Program-made: the position numbers and the translations under genes
Shown: positions 29,970 through 58,715 of the stretch, piece after piece
Layout: each line of letters opens with the position of its first letter
Position numbering within the stretch: the first letter of the stretch is position 1
Assembly (NCBI GenBank): GCA_944368875.1
Contig: CALVXF010000022.1
Coordinates: 217-64,216, forward strand
Source of the DNA: an uncultured Bacilli bacterium
GTDB lineage: Bacteria > Bacillota_I > Bacilli_A > RF39 > UBA660
Direction: 5' to 3'
DNA: 64,000 nt
The notes under the pieces: generated by a model
Databases searched by the model: none
Seen by the model: the letters and a program-made list of their open reading frames with translations, nothing else
Told to the model about the DNA's origin: nothing

Positions 29970-32666
29970 ATGAAGAAATTGAAAGTAATTATAAAAAGAC
30001 ATTGGTATTTTCATTTTATGCTTTTAGCTATGTCAACACTTTGCTTGTCACTACATTTTGATAGTGTTAATGCGATGATGGTTTCTAATGGCCAATTAGC
30101 AGGTTCTGGTCTACCAGGAAGCAGCACTAGTACAGAAAAGTCACTTTATACAGCGACATTAAATAAAGGCGAATTTTTAGCTAAAACACCATTTACCTAT
30201 TTCCGTAGTAGTAATATGGCCCATTGGACAATTAACGGGGAAACAGCTTTTTGTATCGATGTTTATATCGATTATAATAAAAACATGAGTTTATATCGTC
30301 ATTCGCTTTATGAAGAATTTACTTTTTTTGAAGCAATTACAGTAAAACGGATTTTAAACTATGTTGACCTTCATAAAAGTGAAGATAACTCTATTTATGC
30401 GATTGCCCAAGCTTTAGTTTGGGGTATTCGAGAAAATGTTGGCGTTGATTTGCTTTTAAAAAGTGAAGCAACGAGGGACTTAGCTTATCAAGCTTATGCA
30501 GCGTATCGTGGCTTTGTACAAAAAAATGGCGAATACCCAGACATGGGGCCTGAAGAAAAAGCATATGTTGATAATGTATTAGCAGGTATGTGTGTTTCAA
30601 GTGCTGCTGGGACTTTCTATGTATATTATTCAGCTTGTGGTAATGAGTCTGATGAATGGCAACGCTATGTTACAAAAGCGCCAGGGACTTTATGTATTGG
30701 AGCTGAATGTGAGATAGATTGTGGTGAAGAAGGAGAAGGATGTAATAATACGCCAACTGTAAGTCTTGGTGGCAAGTGTGAAGGTGGAAGTTTCTTTGAT
30801 GATACTAACAATTGGGAATGTATTCAAGGAGACAGTCAATTTAAAGATACTTCGATTGCTGGTGAAAATAATCCTTATTGTACTTTCTTCTGTCGGGAAA
30901 CAGTTAATTTTAATTTTCCAGCTAGTAATTTCACTTTTTATGGAGGACAATATTTTACGATCGGTTCATCGGTAGCTGGTAATACATGGGGACCTATTTC
31001 CGTTTATGGTATTCGTAATTGCCGTAGTTATTATAAGGAAAATTCTGGTGATACTAATTATATACCAGGTATTGATTGGACACAATTTTTAGCCGATATT
31101 AAAAGCGATAACAATGCTATTAAAGCGGCTTATAATAAATGGAAAACAGCTCAAGGAGAGTTAGAGGCTTTAAAGAAGGCCAAAAAATATGTTACTAGAA
31201 AGGATTGTAATCCTTCTAATAATTTAAAACTAGAGATTGAAGATGAAGATTTAGATAAAGTTGAATGCGAATGCGCTAATGGTGGAACTTATCTTCCTGG
31301 AGCAAATAAATGCTTTGCTATTGTAAATTGGACAATTAGTATGGAAGAACCAGAAAGTTGTAGCTATGAAAAATATAAAGATATTACCTTACTATATGAA
31401 AATAATAAGTGGTATGTCACTAGAGATTCTCTAGAGTACTGGTATCCAACACAATCTAGTACGCAAGTAAATGCTGATGGTAATAAATTTTATCCACGAG
31501 TTTTTTATGAATATAATGCTAATTTGCATACTTATGGTAAGTGTGTAGCTTCTAGTAGTTCTTATAGTATAGATAAAGAAATTAGTAATAAACAAAAAGA
31601 AGTTAATAGTTTGTATAATGCTTATCGTAGCTTAACTGATAAAAGTCAGGCTAAGATTAATAATATTAAGGCTTGCGCGGGATCAACTGCTAAGTATAAT
31701 TTAAATCCTGTTATTACTTATAGATATGATGATTCTGAGTTTTTCAAATCTGGAACTTTAACTTCATCGGGATCAAGTTCTAGTGTTTCAAAGCAGACAA
31801 CGAATAAAGAAGCTGGAGAGATTAGTTATTCTTTATTAACTTGTACCAATGATGGTGGTTGTAAAACAAAAAGTTATACAATTACAGGATTGAAATTAAA
31901 AAATGTTACATCTAATGAGATAACTATTACAAGTCGTTCGACTTATACTTTAGGCAATACAGGGTATCGTTATGCTCTTAAAAGTAGAGGACAAGTTATT
32001 GGCTCAGTCAATGATGAGTTAAAGGGGGCTTATGTTGATTTAGGCGATGATGTCATTCCTTTAAGTTATACTTTGAAGACAGGATATTATAATATTGTTC
32101 TAAATTATTCTAATATTGGACATAATGGATATTTTGATAAATATGTTTCGCAAATAGGTGGTAATACAGAATATGTTTGTCCATTTTATTTAAAGAATGA
32201 TATTTTAGGGTTTGAAGATGACCCAAATGATCCAGATTATTCTAAAACTGGCCCTATTGGTTTAGATATCATTTATCGTCCTATTCAATTGGGAGAACAA
32301 GATGTTGCTTTTCCTAGTATAGATGGTGATGGTAGAAAGCCTGGCTCTAATTGGATTGGGACAACTTCTACTGGGCAAAGCTATGTTGATGCATATATTA
32401 CTTATAATCGAGGAGTTGATGATTATGAAGTTTATGATTTAGAACCCTTATACACGATAGAAATGACGCCAACTGTAATTAAAAAAATTCGAGAATACAA
32501 TAAAAATGTTGGCGATTATAATGATTTTAATTTAACGTGCACAAACGGTAAACAATGTTATAGTTCATTCATTCATTCTGAATTTGACGAATATATAGGT
32601 GGTAGTTGTGGTGATTCAGGAAGTGGTGAATTTAACTCTTGTGTGACTAGTGGAGGTGGCAGTTAG
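29970..32666 (+). CDS. large (898 aa) secreted cysteine-rich protein, candidate adhesin / filament-associated protein
   Basis: N-terminal signal sequence. About 30 Cys in paired patterns (CEIDCGEEGEGC, VECECANGG). No LPXTG motif. Stop overlaps the next gene's GTG start. Confidence 0.55.
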   Translation: MKKLKVIIKRHWYFHFMLLAMSTLCLSLHFDSVNAMMVSNGQLAGSGLPGSSTSTEKSLYTATLNKGEFLAKTPFTYFRSSNMAHWTINGETAFCIDVYIDYNKNMSLYRHSLYEEFTFFEAITVKRILNYVDLHKSEDNSIYAIAQALVWGIRENVGVDLLLKSEATRDLAYQAYAAYRGFVQKNGEYPDMGPEEKAYVDNVLAGMCVSSAAGTFYVYYSACGNESDEWQRYVTKAPGTLCIGAECEIDCGEEGEGCNNTPTVSLGGKCEGGSFFDDTNNWECIQGDSQFKDTSIAGENNPYCTFFCRETVNFNFPASNFTFYGGQYFTIGSSVAGNTWGPISVYGIRNCRSYYKENSGDTNYIPGIDWTQFLADIKSDNNAIKAAYNKWKTAQGELEALKKAKKYVTRKDCNPSNNLKLEIEDEDLDKVECECANGGTYLPGANKCFAIVNWTISMEEPESCSYEKYKDITLLYENNKWYVTRDSLEYWYPTQSSTQVNADGNKFYPRVFYEYNANLHTYGKCVASSSSYSIDKEISNKQKEVNSLYNAYRSLTDKSQAKINNIKACAGSTAKYNLNPVITYRYDDSEFFKSGTLTSSGSSSSVSKQTTNKEAGEISYSLLTCTNDGGCKTKSYTITGLKLKNVTSNEITITSRSTYTLGNTGYRYALKSRGQVIGSVNDELKGAYVDLGDDVIPLSYTLKTGYYNIVLNYSNIGHNGYFDKYVSQIGGNTEYVCPFYLKNDILGFEDDPNDPDYSKTGPIGLDIIYRPIQLGEQDVAFPSIDGDGRKPGSNWIGTTSTGQSYVDAYITYNRGVDDYEVYDLEPLYTIEMTPTVIKKIREYNKNVGDYNDFNLTCTNGKQCYSSFIHSEFDEYIGGSCGDSGSGEFNSCVTSGGGS

Positions 32667-33067
32667 TGAAGGAATCCTTTTGGGGTGTGTTTATTGTAGG
32701 TTTAGGTGTTACAGCAATTGCTTTTATTTATCTTTTTCAAAATATAACTAGTACAGACGAACACAATTATAATATTCTCAAAGAAACAACCGAAGCGGCG
32801 ATGATTGATGCTTTTGATTTAGCTAGTTATCGTTATGATGGAACAATCAGAATTGATAGAGAGAAGTTTGTGGAAAACTTTTATCGTCGTTTTGCTGAAA
32901 ATGCTAGTTTATCTAGAACATATTATATAGATATATATGATGTTAATGAGGAACCACCAAAAGTAAGTATAAAAGTTTCAAGTACTGAAAAATCAAATAT
33001 TACAGATGATGTGATGGAATTTGATATAGTAAATCAATTAGATGCTATATTAGAAGTTCCATATTAG
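32666..33067 (+). CDS. small N-terminally anchored extracytoplasmic protein
   Basis: GTG start overlapping the upstream stop. Single N-terminal TM followed by a domain of about 100 aa. Confidence 0.45.
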   Translation: MKESFWGVFIVGLGVTAIAFIYLFQNITSTDEHNYNILKETTEAAMIDAFDLASYRYDGTIRIDREKFVENFYRRFAENASLSRTYYIDIYDVNEEPPKVSIKVSSTEKSNITDDVMEFDIVNQLDAILEVPY

Positions 33068-33082
33068 AAAGGATAAAAAAAT

Positions 33083-33901
33083 ATGAATATAGTAACAAGT
33101 ATTACAAGATTTTTAAAAAATAAGAATATTGTCACAATCATGGGGGTTGTTGCGGTTGTGGCTATTTTGTATTTTGGTTATAACTATCAAATAAATCAAC
33201 AAACAAGCCCTATTTCTATTCCGGTTGCAAAAGAAACTATTCAACCGGGGACTTTAATAACTAGTGATATGATAACTTCTATTAGTATTCCTAGAATGGG
33301 AGTTTCTAGTAATGTTATTAGAAGTGCTAGTAGTATTGTTGGTAAATACACCAATTATAATACAGTGATACCAGCAGGATCAATGTTTTATACTGATGTT
33401 GTAATTGATCGCGAAGATTTACCTAATTCTTCTTTTACACAAGTTAAAGAAGGTGATGTCGTTTTTAATTTAAATGTTACGACTGAATCAACTTATGGTA
33501 ATTCTATTTTTCCAGGAGATTACATCGATATTTATATGAAAGCTGAAGATGATTCAGGTCAAATCATGGTAGGTAAGTTAGTTGAAAATATCGAAGTTTT
33601 AGCTTTAAAAGATTCTTCAGGACAAAATGTTTTTGAAGATAGTAGTGAAAGTAGATCACCTGCTTATATGATTTTTGGAGTTTCTTCAGAAATTCATATA
33701 TTACTTCGTAAAGCTCTTTATATGAGTGATTATAGTGTTGAACTTATTCCAGTCCCACATGGTGGTGAAATATTAGAAGAAGGAGAAACGCGTGTTAGTT
33801 CAACATATTTAAAAGAATTTATCAATTCTAAGACAGTTAATCTTCCAGTTGAAGATGACACTACTGTTGAAGAAGACAATTCTAATACAGAAGGAGAATA
33901 A
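33083..33901 (+). CDS. CpaB/RcpC-like (SAF domain) pilus assembly protein
   Basis: N-terminal TM followed by a SAF-like segment IPVAKETIQPGTLITSDMIT..IPR and a beta-rich domain. Sits immediately upstream of the TadA-like ATPase, as in Tad loci. Confidence 0.45.
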   Translation: MNIVTSITRFLKNKNIVTIMGVVAVVAILYFGYNYQINQQTSPISIPVAKETIQPGTLITSDMITSISIPRMGVSSNVIRSASSIVGKYTNYNTVIPAGSMFYTDVVIDREDLPNSSFTQVKEGDVVFNLNVTTESTYGNSIFPGDYIDIYMKAEDDSGQIMVGKLVENIEVLALKDSSGQNVFEDSSESRSPAYMIFGVSSEIHILLRKALYMSDYSVELIPVPHGGEILEEGETRVSSTYLKEFINSKTVNLPVEDDTTVEEDNSNTEGE

Positions 33902-33903
33902 TT

Positions 33904-35142
33904 ATGAGTGATAATATATTCTCACAAATGGATTTTGGATATTTTAAAGAATATTTAAATAATGATGATGTTACAGATATTTCTTATGATAATAATGGAC
34001 AAATACATTTAAAGACTTTATCTCAAGGTATTATAAGGGTAGAAAATCCAAATATAACTAATGCAGTTGTTGAAAAACTTGCATTTCAATGTGCGAATGC
34101 TATGGGGAAATCTTTCAATATGGCTTATCCTATGCTGGATGCTGAGAGTGCTGAATTACGTATGAATTTTATTCATGATTCAATTGCGCGAAATGGTATA
34201 GCCTTGGTTATTCGTAAAACACCTGCTAAAATACGACTTGAAAAAGACAAAATTATTGCTGATAAATATATTACTTTGGGAATTCATGATTTTCTAATCA
34301 AATGTATCGAAGGACATTGTAACATTATTGTATGTGGTGAAACCGGTTCAGGTAAAACAGAATTCGTTAAATATCTAGGTTCAAAAATTAAAGAAAACGA
34401 AAAAATTATAACGATTGAGGATACATTGGAACTCCATCTTGATAAAATATTTCCACATCGTGATATTGTTGCTTTGAAGACTAATAATATTGCTACATAC
34501 TCAGACATTTTAGTGGCTTGTATGCGTCAAAACCCTAAATGGATATTACTTTCCGAAGTGCGTAGTGCTGAAGCTGTCATGGCTGTTCGTAACTCTATTT
34601 CATCAGGGCATTATATTTTATCAACAATCCATGCTGACAAAGCTAGTAGTATTCCAAATCGTATGTATAGTTTGTTGGAAACTAATCAAGATATTGATCA
34701 ATTTCTAAAATCAATCTATCGTTATATTCAATTAGGAATATATATTCGTGGTTACCAAAGTCGAGAAACAGGCAAATTTGTTCGTGAAATAGCTGAAGTT
34801 ACAGAATTTTATGTAACCGAAGATAATGAAGCAAAGTATAATGTCATCTATAAAAAAGATTTATTTGGGAATGTTGTTAACAATGATCCTAGTAAATATT
34901 TGATTGAATATTTATCCGCTCAAGGAGTTCAATTGCCTGATGAAATGGTTGATCGTGCCCAAAATAAAAAAGATTCTGAAATTGGTGTTAGTGCTAATAC
35001 AACAATCGAAAAACCAAATGTTAAAAAAGTTACGCCAGTTGGTCCAACGAATAACCCGATTCCTACGAGTGTTAAAACAACTCAAAATCCAATTGGGGCA
35101 ATGCCCAATACAGCTAATGGAACCGTAAGTTCTAATACATAA
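33904..35142 (+). CDS. TadA/CpaF (VirB11-superfamily) secretion ATPase with P/T-rich C-terminal tail
   Basis: Walker A GETGSGKTE, the IITIEDTLEL motif, Walker B/His-box region RQNPKWILLSEVRSAEA, and HYILSTIHA. Confidence 0.75.
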   Translation: MSDNIFSQMDFGYFKEYLNNDDVTDISYDNNGQIHLKTLSQGIIRVENPNITNAVVEKLAFQCANAMGKSFNMAYPMLDAESAELRMNFIHDSIARNGIALVIRKTPAKIRLEKDKIIADKYITLGIHDFLIKCIEGHCNIIVCGETGSGKTEFVKYLGSKIKENEKIITIEDTLELHLDKIFPHRDIVALKTNNIATYSDILVACMRQNPKWILLSEVRSAEAVMAVRNSISSGHYILSTIHADKASSIPNRMYSLLETNQDIDQFLKSIYRYIQLGIYIRGYQSRETGKFVREIAEVTEFYVTEDNEAKYNVIYKKDLFGNVVNNDPSKYLIEYLSAQGVQLPDEMVDRAQNKKDSEIGVSANTTIEKPNVKKVTPVGPTNNPIPTSVKTTQNPIGAMPNTANGTVSSNT

Positions 35143-35154
35143 GGGAGGTGTAAT

Positions 35155-36057
35155 ATGGAATTACTAATGTTTTTGTTCATCGCTTTTATTATAGTATTTG
35201 TAATTGTTTATCGTTTAAACAACGGGCAAAACGTTTATAAATATATAATCGATACGGGAACTAATATTTATAATAAATATGCACCATATTCTTTTAAATC
35301 AGTTCGTGAAAAAGTAAAAGATTTGGGTCAAGAATACACACCTAGACAATATACAATTCAAATTATTACATTTGCAGCTGGAGCAGCAATAGTATCATAT
35401 TTATATTTCTATAGCATTATTACTTCTGTTATTTATTCTCTTATAGCAATATCTATAATTCCATATTTAACATATTTGCGTTGCAAGAGAATTTATAGTG
35501 AGTTTTTGTTTGAACAAGTTCAGGTTTACACAACTAATGTTATTATGGAATTTGCTACAACTCAAAGTTTCGTTAAAGCTTTAGAAGGTGTATATGAATC
35601 CGGTGTTCTTGAAGATCCAATCAAAACCGATGTTAAAGAGATGATTGATATGGCTTATGCCAATGGGACAATTGATCAATCTTTAGAATATATGAATGCT
35701 AAATATGATTATTATATTGTGCGCAATATGCATCAATTATTTTTACAAATTACTAATGAAGGAACTAGGGATAGCGGTGAGTCTTTGGAAAACATGTCAA
35801 TGGATATTGATATGTTAGTAGAAAATGTTTATCGCGACCGAATGGATAGAGCATCATTCCATAAAAAGTTTTTACAATTTGGTATAGTTTTATATTTGAT
35901 GGTCATGCTTGTTCAATTTCTTTTAGGTGTTGAAACTTATATTGAAATGTTAGATAACATTTTTGTTCAATTATTACTTCATGGTATAGTCATAGTAAAT
36001 ACATATTTCTTGTTGAACGGGGAAAAATATTATAATGAGAATGTAGGTGCTGAATAA
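35155..36057 (+). CDS. TadB-like (T2SSF/GspF-family) inner-membrane platform protein
   Basis: Topology is TM, two TM, cytoplasmic helical domain of about 130 aa, two C-terminal TM. Follows the TadA-like ATPase directly. Confidence 0.5.
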   Translation: MELLMFLFIAFIIVFVIVYRLNNGQNVYKYIIDTGTNIYNKYAPYSFKSVREKVKDLGQEYTPRQYTIQIITFAAGAAIVSYLYFYSIITSVIYSLIAISIIPYLTYLRCKRIYSEFLFEQVQVYTTNVIMEFATTQSFVKALEGVYESGVLEDPIKTDVKEMIDMAYANGTIDQSLEYMNAKYDYYIVRNMHQLFLQITNEGTRDSGESLENMSMDIDMLVENVYRDRMDRASFHKKFLQFGIVLYLMVMLVQFLLGVETYIEMLDNIFVQLLLHGIVIVNTYFLLNGEKYYNENVGAE

Positions 36058-36841
36058 TATGATATTTATTATTATATGTGCTATTATTTTGTTTGTCATG
36101 TTTTATAATAAAATGATAGATCAAAACAAATTTATTCAAGAAACAGAACCATATTTTCGCTTTTTAATGGAAGATGATTATGAATTCTTATTGCATATTA
36201 AGTATGGCGCTGATGTTGATGTCAATAAAATGTTTGGTATTAGAGTAAGAAATGGAATTGTTGTAATTGTAGTTATTATGTTTTATTTCCTTTCTAATTT
36301 AAATTTTATTAGTATATTATTTTCTTTTATCGTAGGATTTATAGTTTTTAAATCATCATATACAAAGTTGAATAGATATTATAAAAACAATTTACACAAT
36401 ATTAATTTAATGTTGCCTTATTATTTAAAAAGTTTGGAAATATTAATTCAACATTACACAGTTCCTGTTGCTTTATCTAAATCAATAGAAACTGCTCCTG
36501 ATATGTTTAAATCAGGTTTGCGTAAATTGTGTGAAAAAATTGAAGCTGGGGATTCTAGCGTTGATCCTTATATGGATTTTGCAAAAGAATACCCTGTTCG
36601 TGATTCGATGCGTATGATGCGTCTTTTATATCGTTTAGGTCTTGGTAGTCAAGAAAATAAACAAGAACAATTAATGATGTTTTCAAGAACTGTTTCAACA
36701 TTGCAAAACAAAAGTCGTGAACAAAAGTATAAAGAGCGTTTAGAAAAAATGGAACAAAAAACAATGATGATGCTTATGTGTACTGGTGGGGGTATTTTGT
36801 TTTTGATGTTGTTGTCAATGATGATGTTAATGAATTTATAA
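36047..36841 (+). CDS. TadC-like (T2SSF-family) platform protein, paralogue of the upstream gene
   Basis: Same TM/cytoplasmic-domain architecture as the preceding gene. Overlaps it by 11 nt. Confidence 0.5.
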   Translation: MLNNMIFIIICAIILFVMFYNKMIDQNKFIQETEPYFRFLMEDDYEFLLHIKYGADVDVNKMFGIRVRNGIVVIVVIMFYFLSNLNFISILFSFIVGFIVFKSSYTKLNRYYKNNLHNINLMLPYYLKSLEILIQHYTVPVALSKSIETAPDMFKSGLRKLCEKIEAGDSSVDPYMDFAKEYPVRDSMRMMRLLYRLGLGSQENKQEQLMMFSRTVSTLQNKSREQKYKERLEKMEQKTMMMLMCTGGGILFLMLLSMMMLMNL

Positions 36842-36874: not shown

Positions 36875-36899
36875 AAGAAAAGATAGGATGGTGAAATAA

Positions 36900-37076
36900 T
36901 GAAAGAAGCTGCTGGAGAAGCAAATTTAACTGTAGTTGCAATTATTTTAATTGCTGTAATTGCTGCCGTTGTTACACCAATTATTAATAATGCTATGCAA
37001 ACTACAAGCGATCGTTCTGACTGCTTGAATAGAGGTTGTAATTGGGATACAAGTTCCAATTCATGTGATTGCTAAT
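36900..37076 (+). CDS. 58-aa Flp/pilin-like peptide with hydrophobic helix and 4-Cys C-terminal tail (not in ORF track)
   Basis: Sequence MKEAAGEANLTVVAIILIAVIAAVVTPIINNAMQTTSDRSDCLNRGCNWDTSSNSCDC. Strong promoter and RBS GGATGGTGA. Position matches flp in tadZABC-flp-tadEF loci. Confidence 0.5.
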
Positions 37077-37106
37077 AAATATATTTAACAAAAGGAGAAG
37101 GTTATA

Positions 37107-37340
37107 ATGAAAAGTAATAAAAGTATGGGAGAAAAAATATTTACCTGTTTTTTGGTTACTGTCATTATAGCCTTGTTATTCTTTCTAGTACTTTATATTT
37201 TGCAACAAACATGTCTTAATGATTGTTGCAAAGAGGCAGGAGGTATGAGTGTTAAGGATGGTGTGTGTGTTGATGTCAATGGAGACCGCATATCATCTAG
37301 TTCTTCATGCCATGATTCTTGTGAGTTTTGGAGGTGGTAG
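37107..37340 (+). CDS. small TM protein with Cys-rich extracytoplasmic tail
   Basis: Single TM helix followed by CLNDCCKEAGG...CVDV...CHDSCEF. Same architecture as the upstream peptide. Start may be the internal MGEKIF. Confidence 0.4.
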   Translation: MKSNKSMGEKIFTCFLVTVIIALLFFLVLYILQQTCLNDCCKEAGGMSVKDGVCVDVNGDRISSSSSCHDSCEFWRW

Positions 37341-37343
37341 TCT

Positions 37344-37802
37344 ATGAGTCAAAGTGTTGGTAGTGTTGCTTTATATAACATTGTTATAGTTTTTTTAGTC
37401 ATTGTATTTGCTTTTTTAGCCGCTACTATTAGTTACTCAAAGGCTTTTCGCGTTAATAGTCGAATTATTTTTGCTATTGAAAAGTATGAGGGTTATAATC
37501 AACTTTCTGCTGACCAAATTGAAGATGTGTTAGAGACTTTAGGTTATACACAAGATAAAAACTTTACTTGTCCAACACGAACTGAAAATGGTCAAAAATA
37601 TGATCCAATTACAAGAATATATAATAATTATGCTTATTGTATTTATTTGTTTCAAGAAGATGCAAGACACTATACTTATGGTGTTCAAACATATTTATAT
37701 GTTGACTTGCCATTTGTACAAGATGTTTTTAAATTGCCAATATATACTAAAACAGAAAGAATATTTTATTTTCATTCTGATGATGATAAGATTGAACCTT
37801 AA
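37344..37802 (+). CDS. N-terminally anchored pseudopilin-like protein (paralogue A)
   Basis: N-terminal hydrophobic segment followed by YSKAFRV...IEKY...TCPTRT...YCIY motifs shared with the next gene. Confidence 0.45.
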   Translation: MSQSVGSVALYNIVIVFLVIVFAFLAATISYSKAFRVNSRIIFAIEKYEGYNQLSADQIEDVLETLGYTQDKNFTCPTRTENGQKYDPITRIYNNYAYCIYLFQEDARHYTYGVQTYLYVDLPFVQDVFKLPIYTKTERIFYFHSDDDKIEP

Positions 37803-37828
37803 TGGTTTTTCAATAGGTAGGAGGAAAT

Positions 37829-38341
37829 ATGAAAGAGTCTATAGCTAATAGTTATATTTTTATGATTATAATTACTTTTATAATTATTATTATGCTTGTA
37901 TTTTTAAGTTCTCTTGCTTATTCAAAAGCTTTTAAAGTTAAAAATAAAATAATTGATTTAATTGAAAAATATGATGATGGTTATGAGCCTAATAAACAAA
38001 CACTTGATGCACAAATAGAAGAAGTATTAAAAGATATAGGCTATCGGATGAGCAACAATCATACTTGTCCAACACGAACATCAAAAAACGGAAGTGCTTT
38101 AACTGCTATTAATACACAAACAAATTATCGTTATTGTATATATAAAGAAGTACAAGGACGAGGTGTGCAATATTATGTTATTGCATATATGTATTTTGAT
38201 ATACCTGTCATCAATGAATATTTAGAATTTCCTTTATCAGGGCAAACTAAAGTGTTCTATGAAACTGTTGATAATCATCATAAATGTAATACTGATTCTG
38301 ATTGTGGTAATTTGAAATGTGTCGATAACAAGTGTATATAG
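37829..38341 (+). CDS. N-terminally anchored pseudopilin-like protein (paralogue B) with knottin-like Cys-rich C-terminus
   Basis: Shares YSKAFKV, IEKY, TCPTRT and YCIY with the upstream gene. C-terminal CNTDSDCGNLKCVDNKC. Confidence 0.45.
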   Translation: MKESIANSYIFMIIITFIIIIMLVFLSSLAYSKAFKVKNKIIDLIEKYDDGYEPNKQTLDAQIEEVLKDIGYRMSNNHTCPTRTSKNGSALTAINTQTNYRYCIYKEVQGRGVQYYVIAYMYFDIPVINEYLEFPLSGQTKVFYETVDNHHKCNTDSDCGNLKCVDNKCI

Positions 38342-38356
38342 AAGAGGGGTAAAATC

Positions 38357-39346
38357 ATGAATGTTATAATTGCTAATCGCTATGGTGCGATGTTACAATC
38401 ATTGGAAATCGAAGTTATTAAAAGATTAGATGGTGAATTCACAGTTGAAGAGATAATTAATCAGTTTCAAAATTTCTTTTATCAAAGAATGATTTTAGAT
38501 ATCACAGCGATAAAAGATTATAAAGATATCAAGAATTTACAAAAATTATCTATTTCTCTAGATATGGATAAAGTGATATTACTATTAGATGATTCACCAG
38601 ATAGTTCATCTAGTGAATACCTATCCAAACTAATTTCAATGGGTATCTATAATTTTACTAAAAATATTGAGGGGATAGTTTATTTATATAATAATCCTAA
38701 TAGTTATCGTGATGTTGCGCAATATCATCAATTAGATAGTATTAAAGAAGTAGTTGTTGAGAAATTTGGACCTAGTTCTGGAACCAAAATTATTGGTATT
38801 AAAAATGTTAATCAAAGTGCAGGAGCTACGACTTTTACTTATATGATGAAAAAACAATTAAGCAAAAATTATAGTGTTGTCGCAATCGAAGTAGACAAAC
38901 GAGATTTTATGTATTTCCGTGATAAAAACATGGTGTCGACAGCAACTCAAGATTTAGGAAATACTTTGGCTAAATATAATGGTAATGATGTTATTCTTGT
39001 TGACATGAATAATAGTGGTGTTGCTGAAGGAATGTGCCACGAAACTATTTACTTACTTGAACCTTCGACAATTAAATTAAATAAATTAATGTTGAGTAAT
39101 CGTAAGATCTTTAGTGAATTAAAAGAAAAGCATATTGTTTTAAACCAAAGCCTTTTGTCTCCTAAAGATGTATTAGCTTTTGAATACGAAGCGAAGACTA
39201 AAATCTTTTATAATATGCCACCACTTGATGAACGTGAAAAAGACATAGAAGCAATGGATCCTTTTTTAATGAAAATGGGTTTTGAACGTCAATCGAATGG
39301 TGAAAATGAGAAAAAGAAAAATATTTTAGGTTTATTTAACATATAA
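38357..39346 (+). CDS. TadZ/CpaE-like pseudo-ATPase (receiver-like N-domain + MinD/ParA-like domain with lysine-less Walker A)
   Basis: KIIGIKNVNQSAGATTFT aligns to the MinD-type KGGVGKTT P-loop, but K is replaced by A. Followed by a VILVDMNN-type Walker B region. Confidence 0.4.
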   Translation: MNVIIANRYGAMLQSLEIEVIKRLDGEFTVEEIINQFQNFFYQRMILDITAIKDYKDIKNLQKLSISLDMDKVILLLDDSPDSSSSEYLSKLISMGIYNFTKNIEGIVYLYNNPNSYRDVAQYHQLDSIKEVVVEKFGPSSGTKIIGIKNVNQSAGATTFTYMMKKQLSKNYSVVAIEVDKRDFMYFRDKNMVSTATQDLGNTLAKYNGNDVILVDMNNSGVAEGMCHETIYLLEPSTIKLNKLMLSNRKIFSELKEKHIVLNQSLLSPKDVLAFEYEAKTKIFYNMPPLDEREKDIEAMDPFLMKMGFERQSNGENEKKKNILGLFNI

Positions 39347-39404: not shown

Positions 39405-39755
39405 ATGTTTATTTTAGATACTGTTTCTTGTGGAGGAATTACAGGCATTCCAGAAATGTTACCAAACTTAGTTAGCATAGGTTATAATATTATTAAAATA
39501 TTTGTTCCAATTGCTTTGATTTTATTTGGTATGTGGGATTTAGGGAAAGCAGTTATGCAACAAAAAGAAGACGATATTAAGAAAGGACAAAAAACTTTCA
39601 TTCAACGTGTTATAGCAGCTGTAATAGTATTCCTAGTTTTCTCAATTGTTCAATTAGTATTTGGTCTATTAGCTTCAGCTAGTGGCGATGATTCAGAAAA
39701 CATCATGGACTGTGTTAATTGCTTTTTAGATAGTAGTAAATGTAGTGCTGACTAA
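39405..39755 (+). CDS. small two-TM protein with Cys-rich C-terminus; VirB2/TrbC-like pilin candidate
   Basis: Two hydrophobic helices separated by a charged loop. C-terminal CVNCFLDSSKCS. Own strong promoter. Followed by a terminator. Confidence 0.4.
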   Translation: MFILDTVSCGGITGIPEMLPNLVSIGYNIIKIFVPIALILFGMWDLGKAVMQQKEDDIKKGQKTFIQRVIAAVIVFLVFSIVQLVFGLLASASGDDSENIMDCVNCFLDSSKCSAD

Positions 39756-39762
39756 TTATAAA

Positions 39763-39796
39763 AATATAGAATAATATCTTTATTCTATATTTTTTT
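39763..39796 (+). terminator. rho-independent terminator
   Basis: ATAGAATAA..TTATTCTAT hairpin followed by TTTTTTTT. A -10 TATAAT follows at about 39803. Confidence 0.55.
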
Positions 39797-39829
39797 TGTG
39801 CTATAATTATAGTAGTTTATTGCGCTCAT

Positions 39830-41314
39830 TTGAGGAGAGATGTTATGAAAAAAACAAAAATATTAAACTGTTTAATATTTACATTATTTTTTATGTTTTC
39901 CACTATATTCAGTACAATGGAAGCAAAAGCATTAATGAACAAATCTAGTGTTGAAATTGTAGGAGGAATAGTTTATCGTGGTACTCATAATGACGGGACA
40001 AATTATACTATTACTATTAATTCAGCCAAGCGTGAAACTAAAATTCAACAACCTGGATATAATTACATTTTTACTTTTGATGTAACTATAAATAATCCTG
40101 TAAATGATAATTTGACTATAACTTATACCATTCAAAGAAATGATGCAAATAAATTAGCAAATAATTCTAATTCATTGCTGTGGACAGACTATTTTAGATA
40201 TATTGTTATGAATAAGAATGGAGAATATTCTATCACGAGTAGTAAACCAAATTCAGACGATTATCCCCTTATTGCCGAAATATCTAATCAAAGTTCAGTA
40301 ATGAAATTCGAAAACGATTTTATGTATTGCTCTGGTGATTTGGTTAAAGCAGGTGATAAAACCAATAAATTACCATATCAAGTTTGTGTTAAAAGGGTAC
40401 ATGGTGATTATTTCTTAATCAAAAAAGAAAATGGTACTGAAACAGCATTTGATTATCAAAATGCATATTCAGGAAATTGGAATGATGAAGATACATATAA
40501 AGGGAATAGTTATGTTAAGCCAATGCAATTTTATTTCAATCCTGATACTTCTGGGATATTTGACACTGAAGGTTTATATGTTTATTTTTATAAACAACAA
40601 ACAGGATTTAATCCTGATAGCAATTGGCAAGACTATTATGTTTCAGGATTAGATTTAACGGATGAAGAATATCAAGAAAATACAGCCCTTGAATTGGAAG
40701 AAGAGCTTAATACACAATATTTAGATTTAGGTAAATGTTTAATTAATAATGGTATTAATTCTAAATATCAGACGCAATGTGATACTTATTTAACTAATAG
40801 AACACCTATTGCAGGTATGACAGAAGAAGAGTTGGAAAATCTAAATATTTCAAATTATGCTAAATGTGTTTTGGAAAAAGAAAATAGTATTTTTATGGAT
40901 GATATAAATACTTATTGTTCTAGTGAATATCAAAATTTATCAGCTGAAAAAGACAGTTTAAAAGATTATGTTCAAAGCACGGGCAATGAAGAATTAATGA
41001 ATAAGTATGCGATTGAATATGGTTTCGATTTTAATTTTGAGATTACAGATGGTTGTGCTTCTTTAGGAAGTTTAATGGGCATTATCAAAGATATTTATAA
41101 TCTTATTTTTTACATTTTGTGTGCTGTTTTAGCAGTTATTACAATGTTTGATTATGCTAAAGCGGTTGTGGATAATGAAGAATTTAAAAACTTTAAAAAA
41201 GCTCATAAACATTTTGCTGTTAGAATAGCCGTTGTTGCAATTGTATGGCTTTTACCTAGTCTAGTTGAATTTATATTTAATTTAATTGGTTTAGGTGAAT
41301 ATTTCTGTTGGTAA
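39830..41314 (+). CDS. secreted Cys-containing protein with two C-terminal TM helices
   Basis: Signal peptide. Ectodomain of about 400 aa. C-terminal double TM anchor. Confidence 0.5.
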   Translation: MRRDVMKKTKILNCLIFTLFFMFSTIFSTMEAKALMNKSSVEIVGGIVYRGTHNDGTNYTITINSAKRETKIQQPGYNYIFTFDVTINNPVNDNLTITYTIQRNDANKLANNSNSLLWTDYFRYIVMNKNGEYSITSSKPNSDDYPLIAEISNQSSVMKFENDFMYCSGDLVKAGDKTNKLPYQVCVKRVHGDYFLIKKENGTETAFDYQNAYSGNWNDEDTYKGNSYVKPMQFYFNPDTSGIFDTEGLYVYFYKQQTGFNPDSNWQDYYVSGLDLTDEEYQENTALELEEELNTQYLDLGKCLINNGINSKYQTQCDTYLTNRTPIAGMTEEELENLNISNYAKCVLEKENSIFMDDINTYCSSEYQNLSAEKDSLKDYVQSTGNEELMNKYAIEYGFDFNFEITDGCASLGSLMGIIKDIYNLIFYILCAVLAVITMFDYAKAVVDNEEFKNFKKAHKHFAVRIAVVAIVWLLPSLVEFIFNLIGLGEYFCW

Positions 41315-41364
41315 AATTAAAGATGATTTTTAAACTTAACGTAAAATTAAAGGAGGTGGTCTGA

Positions 41365-54378: not shown

Positions 54379-56487
54379 ATGCAAGAAAAAATTTTAGCCA
54401 TTTTAAAAAAAGAACAAAAAGCACTATCTGCTCAAGAAATATATGATTTACTTGAACTAAATAGTGTTGATGATTTAAAAAACCTATTAAAAGAATTGCA
54501 AGTATTAGAAGAAAATTTACAAATATATCGTACTAAAAAAGACAACTATATGTTATTTACAAATAGTCATTTAAAATTAGGTAAAATGATTGCCAATAAA
54601 AAAGGTTTTGGTTTTGTCGATATTGAAGGTGATGAAGATGTTTTTATTGCTCCTTCAAATATTAATGGTGCGATTCATGGTGATCAAGTAGTTGTTGAAA
54701 TCACATCTAAAAAAGGTATGGATTTAGAAGGTCGTATTGTCAGGGTTGTAAATCGCGATTTAAAACAACTAGTTGGGGAATACTATACTAAAGATGGTAT
54801 GGGCTATATTAAATTAGATGATGAAAAAGTTAAACTGTTGGTTTCGATTAAACTTGAAAATAGTTTAGGCGCGATGGATGGCCATAAAGTTTTAGTAAAA
54901 ATCGGCAATAAAATTAAAGATAACAATTATGAAGGAGAAGTTGTACGTATTTTAGGCCATAAAAATGACCCAGGTGTTGATATCTTAAGTATTGTTGCTA
55001 AATATGGAATAAATGATACTTTTAGTGAAAAAGTAATGGATGAAGTAGAAGTCTTACCAAATGAAGTTAGTTTAGAAGAAATAAAAGATCGTAAAGATTT
55101 ACGTGACCATATGATTTTTACAATTGATGGTGATGATACTAAAGATATTGATGATGCGATAGAATTAAATAAATTAGAAAATGGCAATTATCTTTTGGGT
55201 GTGCATATTGCTGATGTAAGTTATTATGTTAAAGAAAATACGGAAATTGATAAAGAAGCGTATGACCGTGGTACAAGTGTTTATCTAGCTGATCGTGTTA
55301 TACCGATGTTGCCACATAAATTATCTAACGGAATATGTTCCTTAAATCCCAATGTTGATCGTCTTTCTGTATCATGTGTTATGGAAATAAATAATAAAGG
55401 AGATATTTTAAAAGCAGAAATTTTTCCTAGTGTTATAAAATCTAGAAAACAGATGACTTATAAAAATGTCAATAGTATTTTAGAACAAAATATTATTCCT
55501 GAAGGATATGAAGAATATGCGGATAAATTAAAAGAAATGCATGCATTAGCGCATATTTTAAGAGAGAACAAAATGCGTCGTGGATATATTGATTTTGATA
55601 TTGATGAATCTAAAATAATTGTTAATGAAGACGGTAAAGCTATTGATGTTGTACTTCGCAATCGTGGTGAAGGTGAAAAATTAATTGAAGATTTCATGAT
55701 TGCGGCCAATGAAGCTGTAGCTACCTACATATATATGATGGATCTACCATTTGTCTATCGTGTTCATGGCAAACCAGATGAAGAGAAAATAACTAATTTT
55801 ATTAAATTTATCGGCATGTTAGGCTATCGTGTTAGTACTAGAATTAATGATATAACTCCTAAAGCAATGCAAAAAATATTAGAGGAATTAAATGATAAAA
55901 AAGAATTTCATATTTTATCTAAGTTATTACTTAGAAGTATGCAAAAAGCTGTCTATGATCCAACAAATATAGGGCATTTTGGGATTGCTAGTAAATGCTA
56001 TACTCATTTTACTTCGCCAATTAGAAGATATCCGGATACTACAGTTCATCGCTTACTTAGAACCTATTTATTTGAAAATAAAATGGGGGTGGATACTATT
56101 CGATATTGGGAACAAAAACTACCTTTTTTAACAGAACATGCTTCCAATAAAGAAAGAGATTCGATTGAATGTGAACGCGAAGTAGATGACATGAAAAAAG
56201 CAGAATATATGATGGACCATATAGGTGATAGATATACTGGAATTATTAGTAGTGTTTTAACATTTGGTTTTTTTGTTGAACTACCAAATTTAGTTGAAGG
56301 TCTTGTTCGCATTGATGATTTACCAGGCAATAGTAGATATATTTATGATGAGACAACTTTCTCAATAAGGAGTAATCAAGATAAACGTGGTTATCGTTTA
56401 GGAGATGAAGTTAATGTTATTGTAAAAGATGCTAATAAAGCAAATAAAACAGTTGATTTTATTATTGATACTAAAGAAGAAAAATAA
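54379..56487 (+). CDS. rnr: ribonuclease R (RNB-family 3'-5' exoribonuclease), copy 1
   Basis: Winged-helix N-terminus, cold-shock domains, RNB catalytic motifs ([29 protein letters not shown]) and C-terminal S1 with a K-rich tail. Confidence 0.85.
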   Translation: MQEKILAILKKEQKALSAQEIYDLLELNSVDDLKNLLKELQVLEENLQIYRTKKDNYMLFTNSHLKLGKMIANKKGFGFVDIEGDEDVFIAPSNINGAIHGDQVVVEITSKKGMDLEGRIVRVVNRDLKQLVGEYYTKDGMGYIKLDDEKVKLLVSIKLENSLGAMDGHKVLVKIGNKIKDNNYEGEVVRILGHKNDPGVDILSIVAKYGINDTFSEKVMDEVEVLPNEVSLEEIKDRKDLRDHMIFTIDGDDTKDIDDAIELNKLENGNYLLGVHIADVSYYVKENTEIDKEAYDRGTSVYLADRVIPMLPHKLSNGICSLNPNVDRLSVSCVMEINNKGDILKAEIFPSVIKSRKQMTYKNVNSILEQNIIPEGYEEYADKLKEMHALAHILRENKMRRGYIDFDIDESKIIVNEDGKAIDVVLRNRGEGEKLIEDFMIAANEAVATYIYMMDLPFVYRVHGKPDEEKITNFIKFIGMLGYRVSTRINDITPKAMQKILEELNDKKEFHILSKLLLRSMQKAVYDPTNIGHFGIASKCYTHFTSPIRRYPDTTVHRLLRTYLFENKMGVDTIRYWEQKLPFLTEHASNKERDSIECEREVDDMKKAEYMMDHIGDRYTGIISSVLTFGFFVELPNLVEGLVRIDDLPGNSRYIYDETTFSIRSNQDKRGYRLGDEVNVIVKDANKANKTVDFIIDTKEEK

Positions 56488-56561: not shown

Positions 56562-58715
56562 ATGGAAAACATTTGTGGAAAAATCATAAAAATACTTAAT
56601 AAAAAGGGGATTGTAACAACTAAACAACTATATGATAACTTAAGAGTCGCTAGTGTTGATACTATATCTTTTAAAGATTTAAATGATGCTCTAGCAATTT
56701 TAGAAAGAGAGTTTAAAATTGTTTTAACACGTGATGGTTATTATGAATTATTAGAAACAAAAAACAAAAAAGTAGGGCGCCTTTTAATGCATGAGAAAGG
56801 ATATGGCTTTGTTTCTTTAGAAGATGGCAATGATATTTTTATACCAGCTAATAAATTACATAATTGTATTCATAATGACATTGTTTTAGTTAGAACTAAA
56901 GAATGCAATGGTAAATGTGAAGGTATTATTGAAAAACGCCTAGCACGTAATCAAGATATATTAGTTGGGGAAGTTAAAATTATTGATGGTAAAGAATATG
57001 TGATACCTGATAATCAAAAATATAAAATCAAGGTCCAATTTGTAAATCCTGGCAATATTGTACCAGGGCATAAAGTTACTTTTAAATTATCTGGTGAAGT
57101 ACATGAAGATATTCTAACTGGTAAAATAGAAGAAGTAATTGGTCATAAAAATGAACCAGGGGTAGATATTTTAAGTGTTATCAAAGAATACAATGTTCCT
57201 GTTGAATTTTCCGAAGAAGCTTTAAAAGAACTTCAAAATATTCCTATGAGTGTTACAGAAGACGAGATTAATGATCGCCTTGATTTACGCGATAAATTAA
57301 TTTTTACTATAGATGGTGATGATACCAAAGATATCGATGATGCAATATCGTTGGAAATAAAAGATAATGGTAATTATTTGCTAGGTGGACATATTGCTGA
57401 TGTTAGCTATTATGTAAGACCTGGTAGTGAACTTGATAAAGAAGCTAGGGCAAGAGGAACAAGCAATTATTTAGCTGATAGGGTGATACCTATGTTACCA
57501 CCGGAATTATCTAATGGGATATGTTCCCTAAACCCAAATGTTGATCGTTTAGCATTATCATTTTTTATCGAAATTGCTAAAAATGGTGAAATTGTTGATT
57601 TTGATATTGCTGAATCAGTTATACGTTCTAGAAAACAGATGACTTATAAAAATGTTAATAGTATTTTAGAACAAAATATTATTCCCAAGGGATATGAAGA
57701 ATATGTTCCTATTTTAAAACAAATGCAAGAATTAGCGCATATTTTAAGAGAAAAAAGAGAAATTAATGGCAATTTAGATTTTGATATCGATGAAGTAAAA
57801 ATCAAAGTTGATGAAAAAGGTAAAGCAGTTGGAATTGGTCCAAGACAACGAGGTGAAGGTGAAAAATTAATTGAGGATTTTATGATTGCGATAAATGAAG
57901 GAACAGCTGAATATGCTAGCAATCTTGATCTTCCATTTATATATCGTGTTCATGGTTTACCTCGTCAAGAAAAAGTAGAACAAATTATTCATAAACTAGC
58001 TGGTTTAGAATATGATGCGTTAAAAATATTACGCTCTAATTGTATAAAACATCCTAAAGAGATGCAAAAATTATTAGATGATTTAAAAAAACGAAATGAT
58101 TCTAAAGTAGTTCTATCGCATGTTTTACGTTCAGTAAAAAAAGCAGAGTATTCTGATGAAAACACTGGACATTTCGCTTTGGCTTCAAAAGCATATTCCC
58201 ATCTAACTTCACCAATTAGAAGATATCCTGATTTAGAAAATCATCGTATTTTAAAAAGTATTGTCATATATAATCATTATGAATATGAAGTTATTCAAAA
58301 AATAACAAGAGAAGTATCGGAGTTAGCGCCTTATCTTTCAGGCCGTGAAAAAATCGCTCAAGATTTAGAACGTGAAGTTGACAAAATGAAAATGGCAGAA
58401 TATATGAAATCTTTTATAGGTCAAGAGTTTGATGGTTTGATTTCAGATATTTTACCTAAAGGTCTTTATGTTCAATTGCCTAATTTAGTTGAAGGACGTA
58501 TCAATTTAGACGGACATAATGGTAAAATTATTTTCAACAATGAGACTTATACTTTATCTGATTTAAATCGTGGATTAATATATAAATTGGGGATGCCTGT
58601 CAAAGTAAAATTAATTGAAGCCTCAAAAGAAAGACATACAATTGATTTCGAACTAGTTGATGATAAGCCAAAAGTAAAGGAGTTAAAACATGGAAATTCT
58701 AAACAAAAAGGCTAA
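56562..58715 (+). CDS. ribonuclease R / RNase II-family paralogue, copy 2
   Basis: Same domain series and RNB motifs as copy 1. A 24-aa stretch [20 protein letters not shown] is identical to the one in copy 1. Confidence 0.85.

Follow-up and report, generated by a model that had tools for sequence, protein, structure and literature searches.

A TadZ/CpaE-like protein with a remodeled P-loop in a Tad-like/type IV secretion hybrid locus of uncultured gut Bacilli

Within a 64,000-nucleotide stretch of DNA from an uncultured Bacilli bacterium (assembly GCA_944368875.1, contig CALVXF010000022.1; hereafter the window), a gene at positions 38357-39346 encodes a protein that is probably, at a likelihood we put at roughly 0.6, a cytoplasmic organizer subunit of the TadZ/CpaE type. 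It would serve a chromosomally encoded machine in which a Tad-like pilus module is combined with a type IV secretion system (T4SS) of the kind known from Gram-positive bacteria and from the integrative and conjugative elements (ICEs) of mycoplasmas. In the predicted structure, a variable linker connects an atypical receiver domain to a domain with a ParA/MinD fold. Judging from the aligned family, the P-loop of the latter domain has not decayed, but has been replaced by a family-specific motif, N-h-T-x-H-A-G-A/S-T-T/S, that is under strong constraint. The gene and all features of its locus discussed below lie on the + strand.

The gene itself is real. Exactly at the position given in the preliminary description of this DNA lies a complete open reading frame (ORF) of 329 amino acids plus stop codon, starting with ATG. 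It is preceded by a ribosome-binding site (GAGGGG, 38344-38349, 8 nucleotides upstream of the ATG), and the strand opposite the ORF is full of stop codons. A search among 5.8 billion proteins yielded more than 6800 homologs (E<=1e-3), not one of which carried a Pfam domain or a name beyond “hypothetical.” The N-terminus MNVI is kept in homologs. In an exhaustive hidden Markov model search of 1.84 billion cluster representatives, the family was found in 573 clusters at 50% identity, and a genome scan found it encoded in at least 569 species-representative genomes. Its hosts are gut and rumen metagenome-assembled genomes labeled Bacilli, Tenericutes, Mollicutes, Acholeplasma sp. CAG:878, or Candidatus Fimihabitans, the last of which is classed as Mycoplasmatota incertae sedis; we infer that these genomes belong to the GTDB order RF39. 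A literature search found neither the family nor its locus described.

Structure prediction recovered the ParA/MinD fold that had been proposed for this protein. With an alignment of 18 sequences, AlphaFold2 gave a predicted local distance difference test score (pLDDT) of 76.6, and with an alignment of 59 sequences (31-92% identity) a pLDDT of 90.3 and a predicted template modeling score of 0.63. In the model, residues 1-114 (38357-38698) form a five-unit alpha/beta domain of the receiver type, in agreement with the receiver-like N-terminal domain of about 120 amino acids described earlier. An interdomain linker follows (residues 115-141; 38699-38779), which has a low pLDDT and is poorly conserved, with a consensus frequency of 0.31. 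Residues 142-310 (38780-39286) are modeled as a compact ParA/MinD-fold domain, which places them among the SIMIBI P-loop nucleoside triphosphatases. This domain opens with a strand (144-150), a loop (151-156), and a helix (157-168) at the position of a Walker A motif, and the strand formed by residues 212-216 ends in D216, at the Walker B position.

Comparison of the model with the PDB gave tabulated values of 13.3 for ParA of TP228 (5U1G), 13.2 for BcsQ, 13.1 for the ParA protein 3CWQ, 12.6 for 3EA0, 12.4 for MinD, and 12.0 for FleN, and matches to enzymes ranked below those to ParA/MinD proteins. The value for the Eubacterium rectale TadZ structure 3FKQ was also 12.0, with 180 residues aligned, and this was the sole PDB match that covered 2 domains. 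When a bona fide TadZ from Ralstonia is compared with the PDB, its top match is 3EA0, a “ParA family ATPase” from Chlorobium. In some relatives of 400-520 amino acids (P0127, P0172, P0192, P0200, and P0219), the receiver-like and ParA-like domains are set apart by some 100-200 additional residues, seen as matches in 2 separate stretches. One member of alignment A2 gave Pfam matches to HAD hydrolases, which could reflect a fusion or a mis-assembly.

The P-loop of this domain is where the protein departs from its presumed relatives. Both peptides quoted in the preliminary description are present, KIIGIKNVNQSAGATTFT as residues 144-161 (38786-38839) and VILVDMNN as residues 212-219 (38990-39013), and the former indeed lies at the position of a deviant P-loop: KIIGIKNVNQSAGATT sits in the strand-loop-helix of the model. 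The register follows from an ungapped alignment with 3EA0 (FGFVSAKGGDGGS), in which V151 corresponds to the first Walker glycine, N152 to the signature lysine, Q153-S154 to the Gly-Gly pair, G156 to a glycine, A157 to the Walker lysine, and T158 to the Mg-binding threonine or serine. An ungapped alignment with E. coli MinD gives the same register, as does an hhalign comparison with the Ralstonia TadZ (VLAILGARPGVGTTTL), although at E=0.12 this single-sequence alignment is not significant.

Across about 80 aligned full-length cluster representatives, the consensus of the loop reads (I/V)IG-x-(K/R)-N-h-T-x-H-A-G-(A/S/T)-T-(T/S). None of these sequences has a lysine at either of the lysine positions or a K-G-G; N or T is found at position 152 and A, S, or T at position 157. 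At position 151, the place of the first Walker glycine, the residue is beta-branched or aliphatic (V, I, or L). The deviant Walker A motif KGGxGK[ST] is thus missing from the family, both lysine positions being occupied by other residues throughout, and so is the motif K/RGGxGxS/T of TadZ. In the protein from the window, the loop reads N-V-N-Q-S-A-G-A-T-T and retains only the G-x-[ST] end of the TadZ motif. This protein is unusual within its own family, most members of which have T and H in place of its N152 and S154.

Two claims of the preliminary description need to be adjusted in this light. The substitution of the Walker lysine by alanine is correct (A157), but it does not mark the protein as extreme, as TadZ proteins generally lack this lysine: it is missing from both the Ralstonia TadZ (GARPGVGTTT) and 3EA0 (AKGGDGGS), and its loss was already known to be normal in TadZ. 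The published Walker-like consensus of TadZ is K/RGGxGxS/T, and it accompanies an atypical receiver domain (bioRxiv 10.64898/2026.07.08.737194). What the aligned sequences indicate as the distinctive feature is that, across the family, the signature K/R and both glycines are missing as well. Likewise, the glycines were rightly described as partly lost, the Gly-Gly pair being absent family-wide, but “degenerate” does not fit in the sense of decaying. Conservation within the protein is highest along the P-loop: residues 145-162 have a mean consensus frequency of 0.73, compared with 0.48 overall, and rank second of 312 windows of 18 residues.

Other parts of the nucleotide site are conserved as well. 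T158 is 95% conserved. Strand 2 and the equivalent of Walker A'/switch I (VVAIEVDKRDF, residues 174-184; 38876-38908), a positional match to HVLAVDIS of 3EA0, contain the invariant E178, D or N at position 180, and D183, which is 94% conserved. The Walker B-like strand contributes the invariant D216 along with N218 (99% conserved). Acidic residues are therefore present at the Walker A' and Walker B positions (E178 and D216), an equivalence that is positional and was drawn from the strands of the model and the ungapped alignment with 3EA0. With its loop being the best conserved segment and T158, E178, and D216 being invariant or nearly so, the pocket is likely a working site for a ligand or a partner.

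The receiver-like domain shows a comparable pattern. D48, at the end of strand 3 and thus at the phospho-acceptor position, is 100% conserved, and N7, T50, Y98, and N99 are nearly invariant, while position 78 is variable. Of the pocket typical of response regulators (an acidic pair, an Asp, a Thr/Ser, and a Lys), only the Asp is present: N7 replaces the acidic pair after strand 1, and N99 replaces the lysine after strand 5. The domain is therefore an atypical receiver with a conserved, non-canonical pocket.

At its other end, the protein carries a tail (residues 311-329; 39287-39343) that ends in EKKKNILGLFNI and consists of a basic cluster followed by a short hydrophobic helix, with residues 314-326 modeled as helical at a pLDDT of 56-67. 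The tail motif was found in 117 of 120 close homologs and in 26 of 78 distant ones, and the hydrophobic moment of the helix is unremarkable. We take the tail to resemble the membrane-targeting sequence of MinD. As a candidate membrane-targeting helix of the MinD/CpaE type it is suggestive only. For CpaE, a C-terminal amphipathic helix has been predicted (PMC13170226).

The genomic context points in the same direction as the fold. Some 23 kb of co-oriented, tightly spaced genes (27628-50535) make up the locus to which the gene belongs, and in which a Tad-like module is joined to a T4SS of the Gram-positive/mycoplasma ICE type. In a single co-oriented string, this locus contains genes for a CpaB/RcpC-like protein, a T2SSE-domain ATPase, and pilin-like proteins, as is expected of a TadZ/CpaE gene. 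A SAF protein resembling CpaB/RcpC (33083-33901) reached 30.2 bits against Pfam RcpC (cut-off 28.8) and E=1.9e-11 against the CpaB model TIGR03177. It is followed by a CpaF/VirB11-family secretion ATPase (33904-35142; T2SSE E=1.7e-27), which scored below the cut-offs of the VirB11, TrbB, and TadA models alike, and which presumably acts as partner to the TadZ-like protein. The next 2 genes (35155-36841) encode hydrophobic, apparently multi-pass membrane proteins in the position of TadB and TadC, a label that is positional only. BLASTP did not confirm an identity with TadB/TadC, showing no similarity to the T2SS-F proteins of a Clostridium tad locus.

Directly upstream of the TadZ-like gene, 4 translated ORFs (36899-38341) encode short proteins of 58, 77, 152, and 170 amino acids with a hydrophobic N-terminal segment. 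These are candidates for a Flp-type pilin and pseudopilins. None of the 4 matched a Pfam or NCBIfam family, while the 152- and 170-amino-acid proteins are conserved in 77 of 80 related loci. The 58-amino-acid ORF (36899-37075), which falls short of the 60 amino acids from which ORFs are usually listed and reads MKEAAGEANLTVVAIILIAVIAAVV..., has the look of a Flp-type prepilin, with a short leader, a glycine, and a hydrophobic helix, and its C-terminus is cysteine-rich. The pilin-like proteins encoded at 37107-37340 and 37829-38341 are also unusually rich in cysteine, with CxxC-like clusters. No prepilin peptidase was recognized in the locus.

The T4SS module lies downstream of the TadZ-like gene (39405-50535), and was recognized from Pfam, the NCBIfam models Mbov_0397 VirB4, MMCAP2_0566, and CD1115 VirD4, and synteny. 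Its genes encode, in order, a T4SS-pilin-like protein, a 494-amino-acid protein, a TrbL/VirB6-like protein of the MMCAP2_0566 family, a split VirB4, a CHAP hydrolase, and a VirD4 of the CD1115 family. The gene order of the locus is kept in 80 loci from different species, and also around a divergent relative of 516 amino acids. The host machine is thus a hybrid of Tad-like and type IV secretion components, and not a classical tad locus.

Kinship to TadZ rests on the predicted fold, the domain architecture, and the gene context, as no sequence method linked the proteins. The TadZ/CpaE-like identity given in the preliminary description is thus upheld by the 2-domain architecture, the fold, and the neighbors, but membership by sequence cannot be shown. 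With the single protein as query, neither Pfam, NCBIfam, nor a phmmer search of the PDB revealed a relative; specifically, the protein itself matched none of TadZ_N (PF16968), AAA_31, and CbiA. Searches of the PDB with hmmsearch, using family profiles of 18 and 59 sequences, found no relative either, and the best matches of the annotation searches were noise (ribosomal L24, SHMT, and PaaA-like_N). For reference, we used a 28-sequence Burkholderiales alignment of CpaE/TadZ and a Ralstonia TadZ located via plasmid tad loci. Two other candidate references were rejected: an AAA ATPase from a C. botulinum plasmid, which has no receiver domain and a normal GKT, and a “pilus assembly protein” from a Rhizobium plasmid, which gave no family match.

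A number of observations weigh against assignment to the TadZ/CpaE type. TadZ, CpaE, ParA, and MinD all went undetected by every sequence method; a Pfam scan of 59 relatives gave just 2 weak matches to AAA_31 (E=0.01), and hhalign of the family against the 28-sequence CpaE alignment was not significant (E=0.19), the aligned piece comprising only the Walker B strand (FDLQVVDLGG in the CpaE profile) and the strand that follows. The neighboring ATPase scores slightly better against the VirB11 and TrbB models than against the TadA model, and the 2 proteins in the TadB/TadC position show no T2SS-F homology by Pfam, NCBIfam, or BLASTP. In addition, tadZ usually precedes the ATPase gene, while the gene studied here follows the pseudopilin-like genes. 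Finally, the tail is absent from approximately two thirds of the distant relatives, and its hydrophobic moment does not set it apart. The negative results at the sequence level weaken the kinship without excluding it, because TadZ proteins differ greatly even from one another. In the PDB, the Ralstonia TadZ had no matches at E<=0.01 other than 3EA0, the TadZ N-domain 4LDA, and FleN chains.

Set beside the characterized TadZ/CpaE proteins (3FKQ, C. crescentus CpaE, the TadZ-type ATPase domain 3EA0, and the CpaE2 N-domain 4MYR), the protein shares the pairing of an atypical receiver with a ParA/MinD fold, the missing lysine at the GK[ST] position, the company of a CpaB/RcpC protein, a CpaF-family ATPase, and pilin-like genes, and possibly a C-terminal membrane helix. 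It differs from them in having also lost the signature K/R and the Gly-Gly pair in favor of N-h-T-x-H-A-G-A/S-T, and in belonging to a locus fused to a T4SS. With MinD, FlhG, and FleN it shares the acidic Walker A' and Walker B positions and a tail in which a basic cluster precedes a hydrophobic segment, but those proteins have KGGxGK[ST] and no N-terminal receiver-like domain, and no partners of the MinE/MinC type were identified in the window.

If the protein is indeed an organizer of the TadZ/CpaE type, its mode of action can be sketched by analogy with CpaE. In situ, CpaE has been modeled as 6 dimers around a CpaF hexamer, with binding to the inner membrane predicted to occur through the C-terminal helix (PMC13170226). 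By the same logic, the protein described here would dock at the membrane through its basic-hydrophobic tail, self-associate and contact partners through the receiver-like domain, and recruit or position the CpaF/VirB11-family ATPase and the pilus/secretion platform. Canonical ATP hydrolysis of the deviant Walker A type is almost certainly absent, judging from the loop: the cis lysine and the trans signature lysine, both of which are needed for canonical catalysis, are missing, which makes hydrolysis very unlikely. As to binding, we lean, by a narrow margin, toward loss of canonical nucleotide binding over a retained non-canonical mode. The conserved pocket (T158, E178, and D216, with N150, T152, and H154 in most members) might still hold a nucleotide or phosphate ligand as a static dimerization cofactor, or may serve solely as a protein interface.

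The strongest competing explanation, which we consider possible though clearly less probable, is that the protein is a genuine nucleotide-dependent switch. The rebuilt P-loop would then be a binding site for ATP-Mg, or else for GTP or a cyclic dinucleotide, with contacts from backbone amides, T158, E178, D216, and the family-specific N150, T152, H154, K149, and K181, and this binding would drive dimerization as in E. rectale TadZ and BcsQ; the label “pseudo-ATPase” would then be wrong as far as binding is concerned. Dead sites normally drift, while here the loop is the most conserved stretch and the equivalents of the Mg site are invariant. BcsQ (6YAR/6YBB), whose Walker A we take to read RGGVGTT, likewise lacks the canonical lysine, and is an organizer of an envelope secretion machine and not a motor, which is the role we propose for the protein studied here. 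Proteins without the Walker lysine have been deposited with ATP, both TadZ 3FKQ (PMC13170226) and BcsRQ-ATP 6YBB (PDB listing), and E. rectale TadZ binds ATP for dimerization (PMC13170226). However, the known proteins of this kind still have the signature K/R and the Gly-Gly pair, such as the Arg-Gly-Gly of BcsQ, both of which are gone in all relatives of our protein examined; no positive side chain remains at either canonical position, and V, I, or L takes the place of the first Walker glycine at position 151. BcsQ also lacks a receiver domain and has BcsR and BcsE as its partners, of which no counterpart was identified at this locus.

More doubtful is a reading in which nucleotide chemistry has been given up altogether and the family acts as a hub with a ParA/MinD fold. 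Both the P-loop pocket (N150, T152, H154, G156, T158, E178, and D216) and the receiver-like pocket (N7, D48, T50, and N99) would bind a different ligand or partner, coupling the Tad-like pilus motor to a chromosomally fixed T4SS. If this were true, the machine, which is kept across many small-genome, uncultured gut bacteria related to Bacilli and Mollicutes, could serve in DNA uptake or in contacts with host or neighboring cells as part of the core genome, rather than as a mobile conjugation element.

It is improbable that the protein is instead a ParA-like adaptor for the T4SS half, recruiting a substrate or the VirD4/VirB4 ATPases to the channel in the manner of VirC1. In Agrobacterium, the ParA-like VirC1 recruits the relaxosome. 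The gene does lie at the junction of the pilin-like and T4SS genes, the neighboring ATPase scores best against VirB11 and TrbB, and the closest plasmid relatives of this ATPase are found in conjugation operons of the pLS20 type. The locus shares with pLS20-family and mycoplasma ICE conjugation systems the neighboring ATPase, VirB6-like, VirB4, and VirD4 proteins, and small membrane proteins, and its gene order matches pLS20 genes 34-54; the 2 multi-pass membrane proteins, for example, match the uncharacterized genes 38 and 39 in position and size. The pLS20-type plasmid systems, however, have no homolog of the TadZ-like protein. A tblastn search against 72,556 plasmids returned nothing at E<=1, and the homolog of pLS20 gene 47, a cytosolic 361-amino-acid protein of unknown function that we considered as a plasmid counterpart, proved unrelated. 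A receiver-plus-ParA architecture is characteristic of TadZ/CpaE and not of VirC1, and the Tad-specific CpaB/RcpC gene, which is unannotated in both plasmid loci inspected, is present here. Unlike the plasmid systems, moreover, this locus is chromosomal and flanked by housekeeping genes, and the window yielded no relaxase to recruit.

Least probable of all, to the point where we give it very little weight, is that the protein only resembles TadZ and is in truth a response regulator capable of being phosphorylated, or else an unrelated enzyme with a Rossmann-like fold, for example of the dethiobiotin-synthetase or CobQ type: the phospho-acceptor position D48 is fully conserved, but the acidic pair and the lysine of the receiver pocket have given way to N7 and N99, no histidine kinase was found among the window ORFs scanned, enzymes score below ParA/MinD proteins in the structural comparison, and the gene context is wholly that of a pilus and a secretion system.

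Several further features of the locus and its surroundings were observed. The locus starts with genes for 2 proteins of unknown function (540 and 224 amino acids), followed by an 898-amino-acid putative surface protein (29970-32666) and a DUF5411 protein. The 898-amino-acid protein is unusually rich in cysteine, with CxxC-like clusters, has no Pfam or NCBIfam match, and holds the position of the pLS20 thioester adhesin Tie. The DUF5411 gene (32666-33067; Pfam E=3e-53), which corresponds in position to pLS20 gene 36, immediately precedes the CpaB-like gene. It is also kept in 54 of 80 related loci, and these observations tie the domain to the pilus/secretion machine. Of the split VirB4, the 190-amino-acid piece (43486-44058) matches positions 98-276 of the Mbov_0397-family mycoplasma VirB4 model, and the 594-amino-acid piece (44058-45842) matches positions 295-889. 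The listed ORF of the smaller piece overlaps the end of another ORF (43218-43547). This split is conserved, with both pieces found in about 50 related loci; one of these, L088, has ORFs of 198 and 594 amino acids.

Upstream, the locus is flanked by genes for PcrA, LigA, NusA, IF-2, PFL, TyrRS, EzrA, ThiI, and ScpA/B, and downstream by genes for RmuC, 2 RNase R paralogs, and a sulfatase-family protein. The RNase R (RNB-domain) paralogs are arranged in tandem (54379-56487 and 56562-58715), and the second has no detectable S1 domain. Neither a relaxase nor an integrase was found in the window, and the locus may represent a domesticated machine of the core genome.

Of the core components of Tad pili, TadZ/CpaE is understood least, and the importance of its nucleotide site is still debated. 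Relative to the known loss of the GK[ST] lysine, what is new here is that the deviant Walker A signature has disappeared completely and that the motif in its place is strongly conserved. Also new are the size and anonymity of the family and its home in a chromosomal Tad-like/T4SS hybrid across a lineage of gut bacteria with reduced genomes. The family therefore offers a natural experiment on what a ParA/MinD scaffold does without canonical ATP chemistry, and through its assignment, a protein that is now “hypothetical” in hundreds of gut metagenome-assembled genomes would gain a name and a role open to testing. Arguably, the locus as a whole is of more interest than the details of the P-loop: the gene flags an undescribed Tad-like/T4SS hybrid that may matter for the attachment or the DNA exchange of these uncultured organisms.

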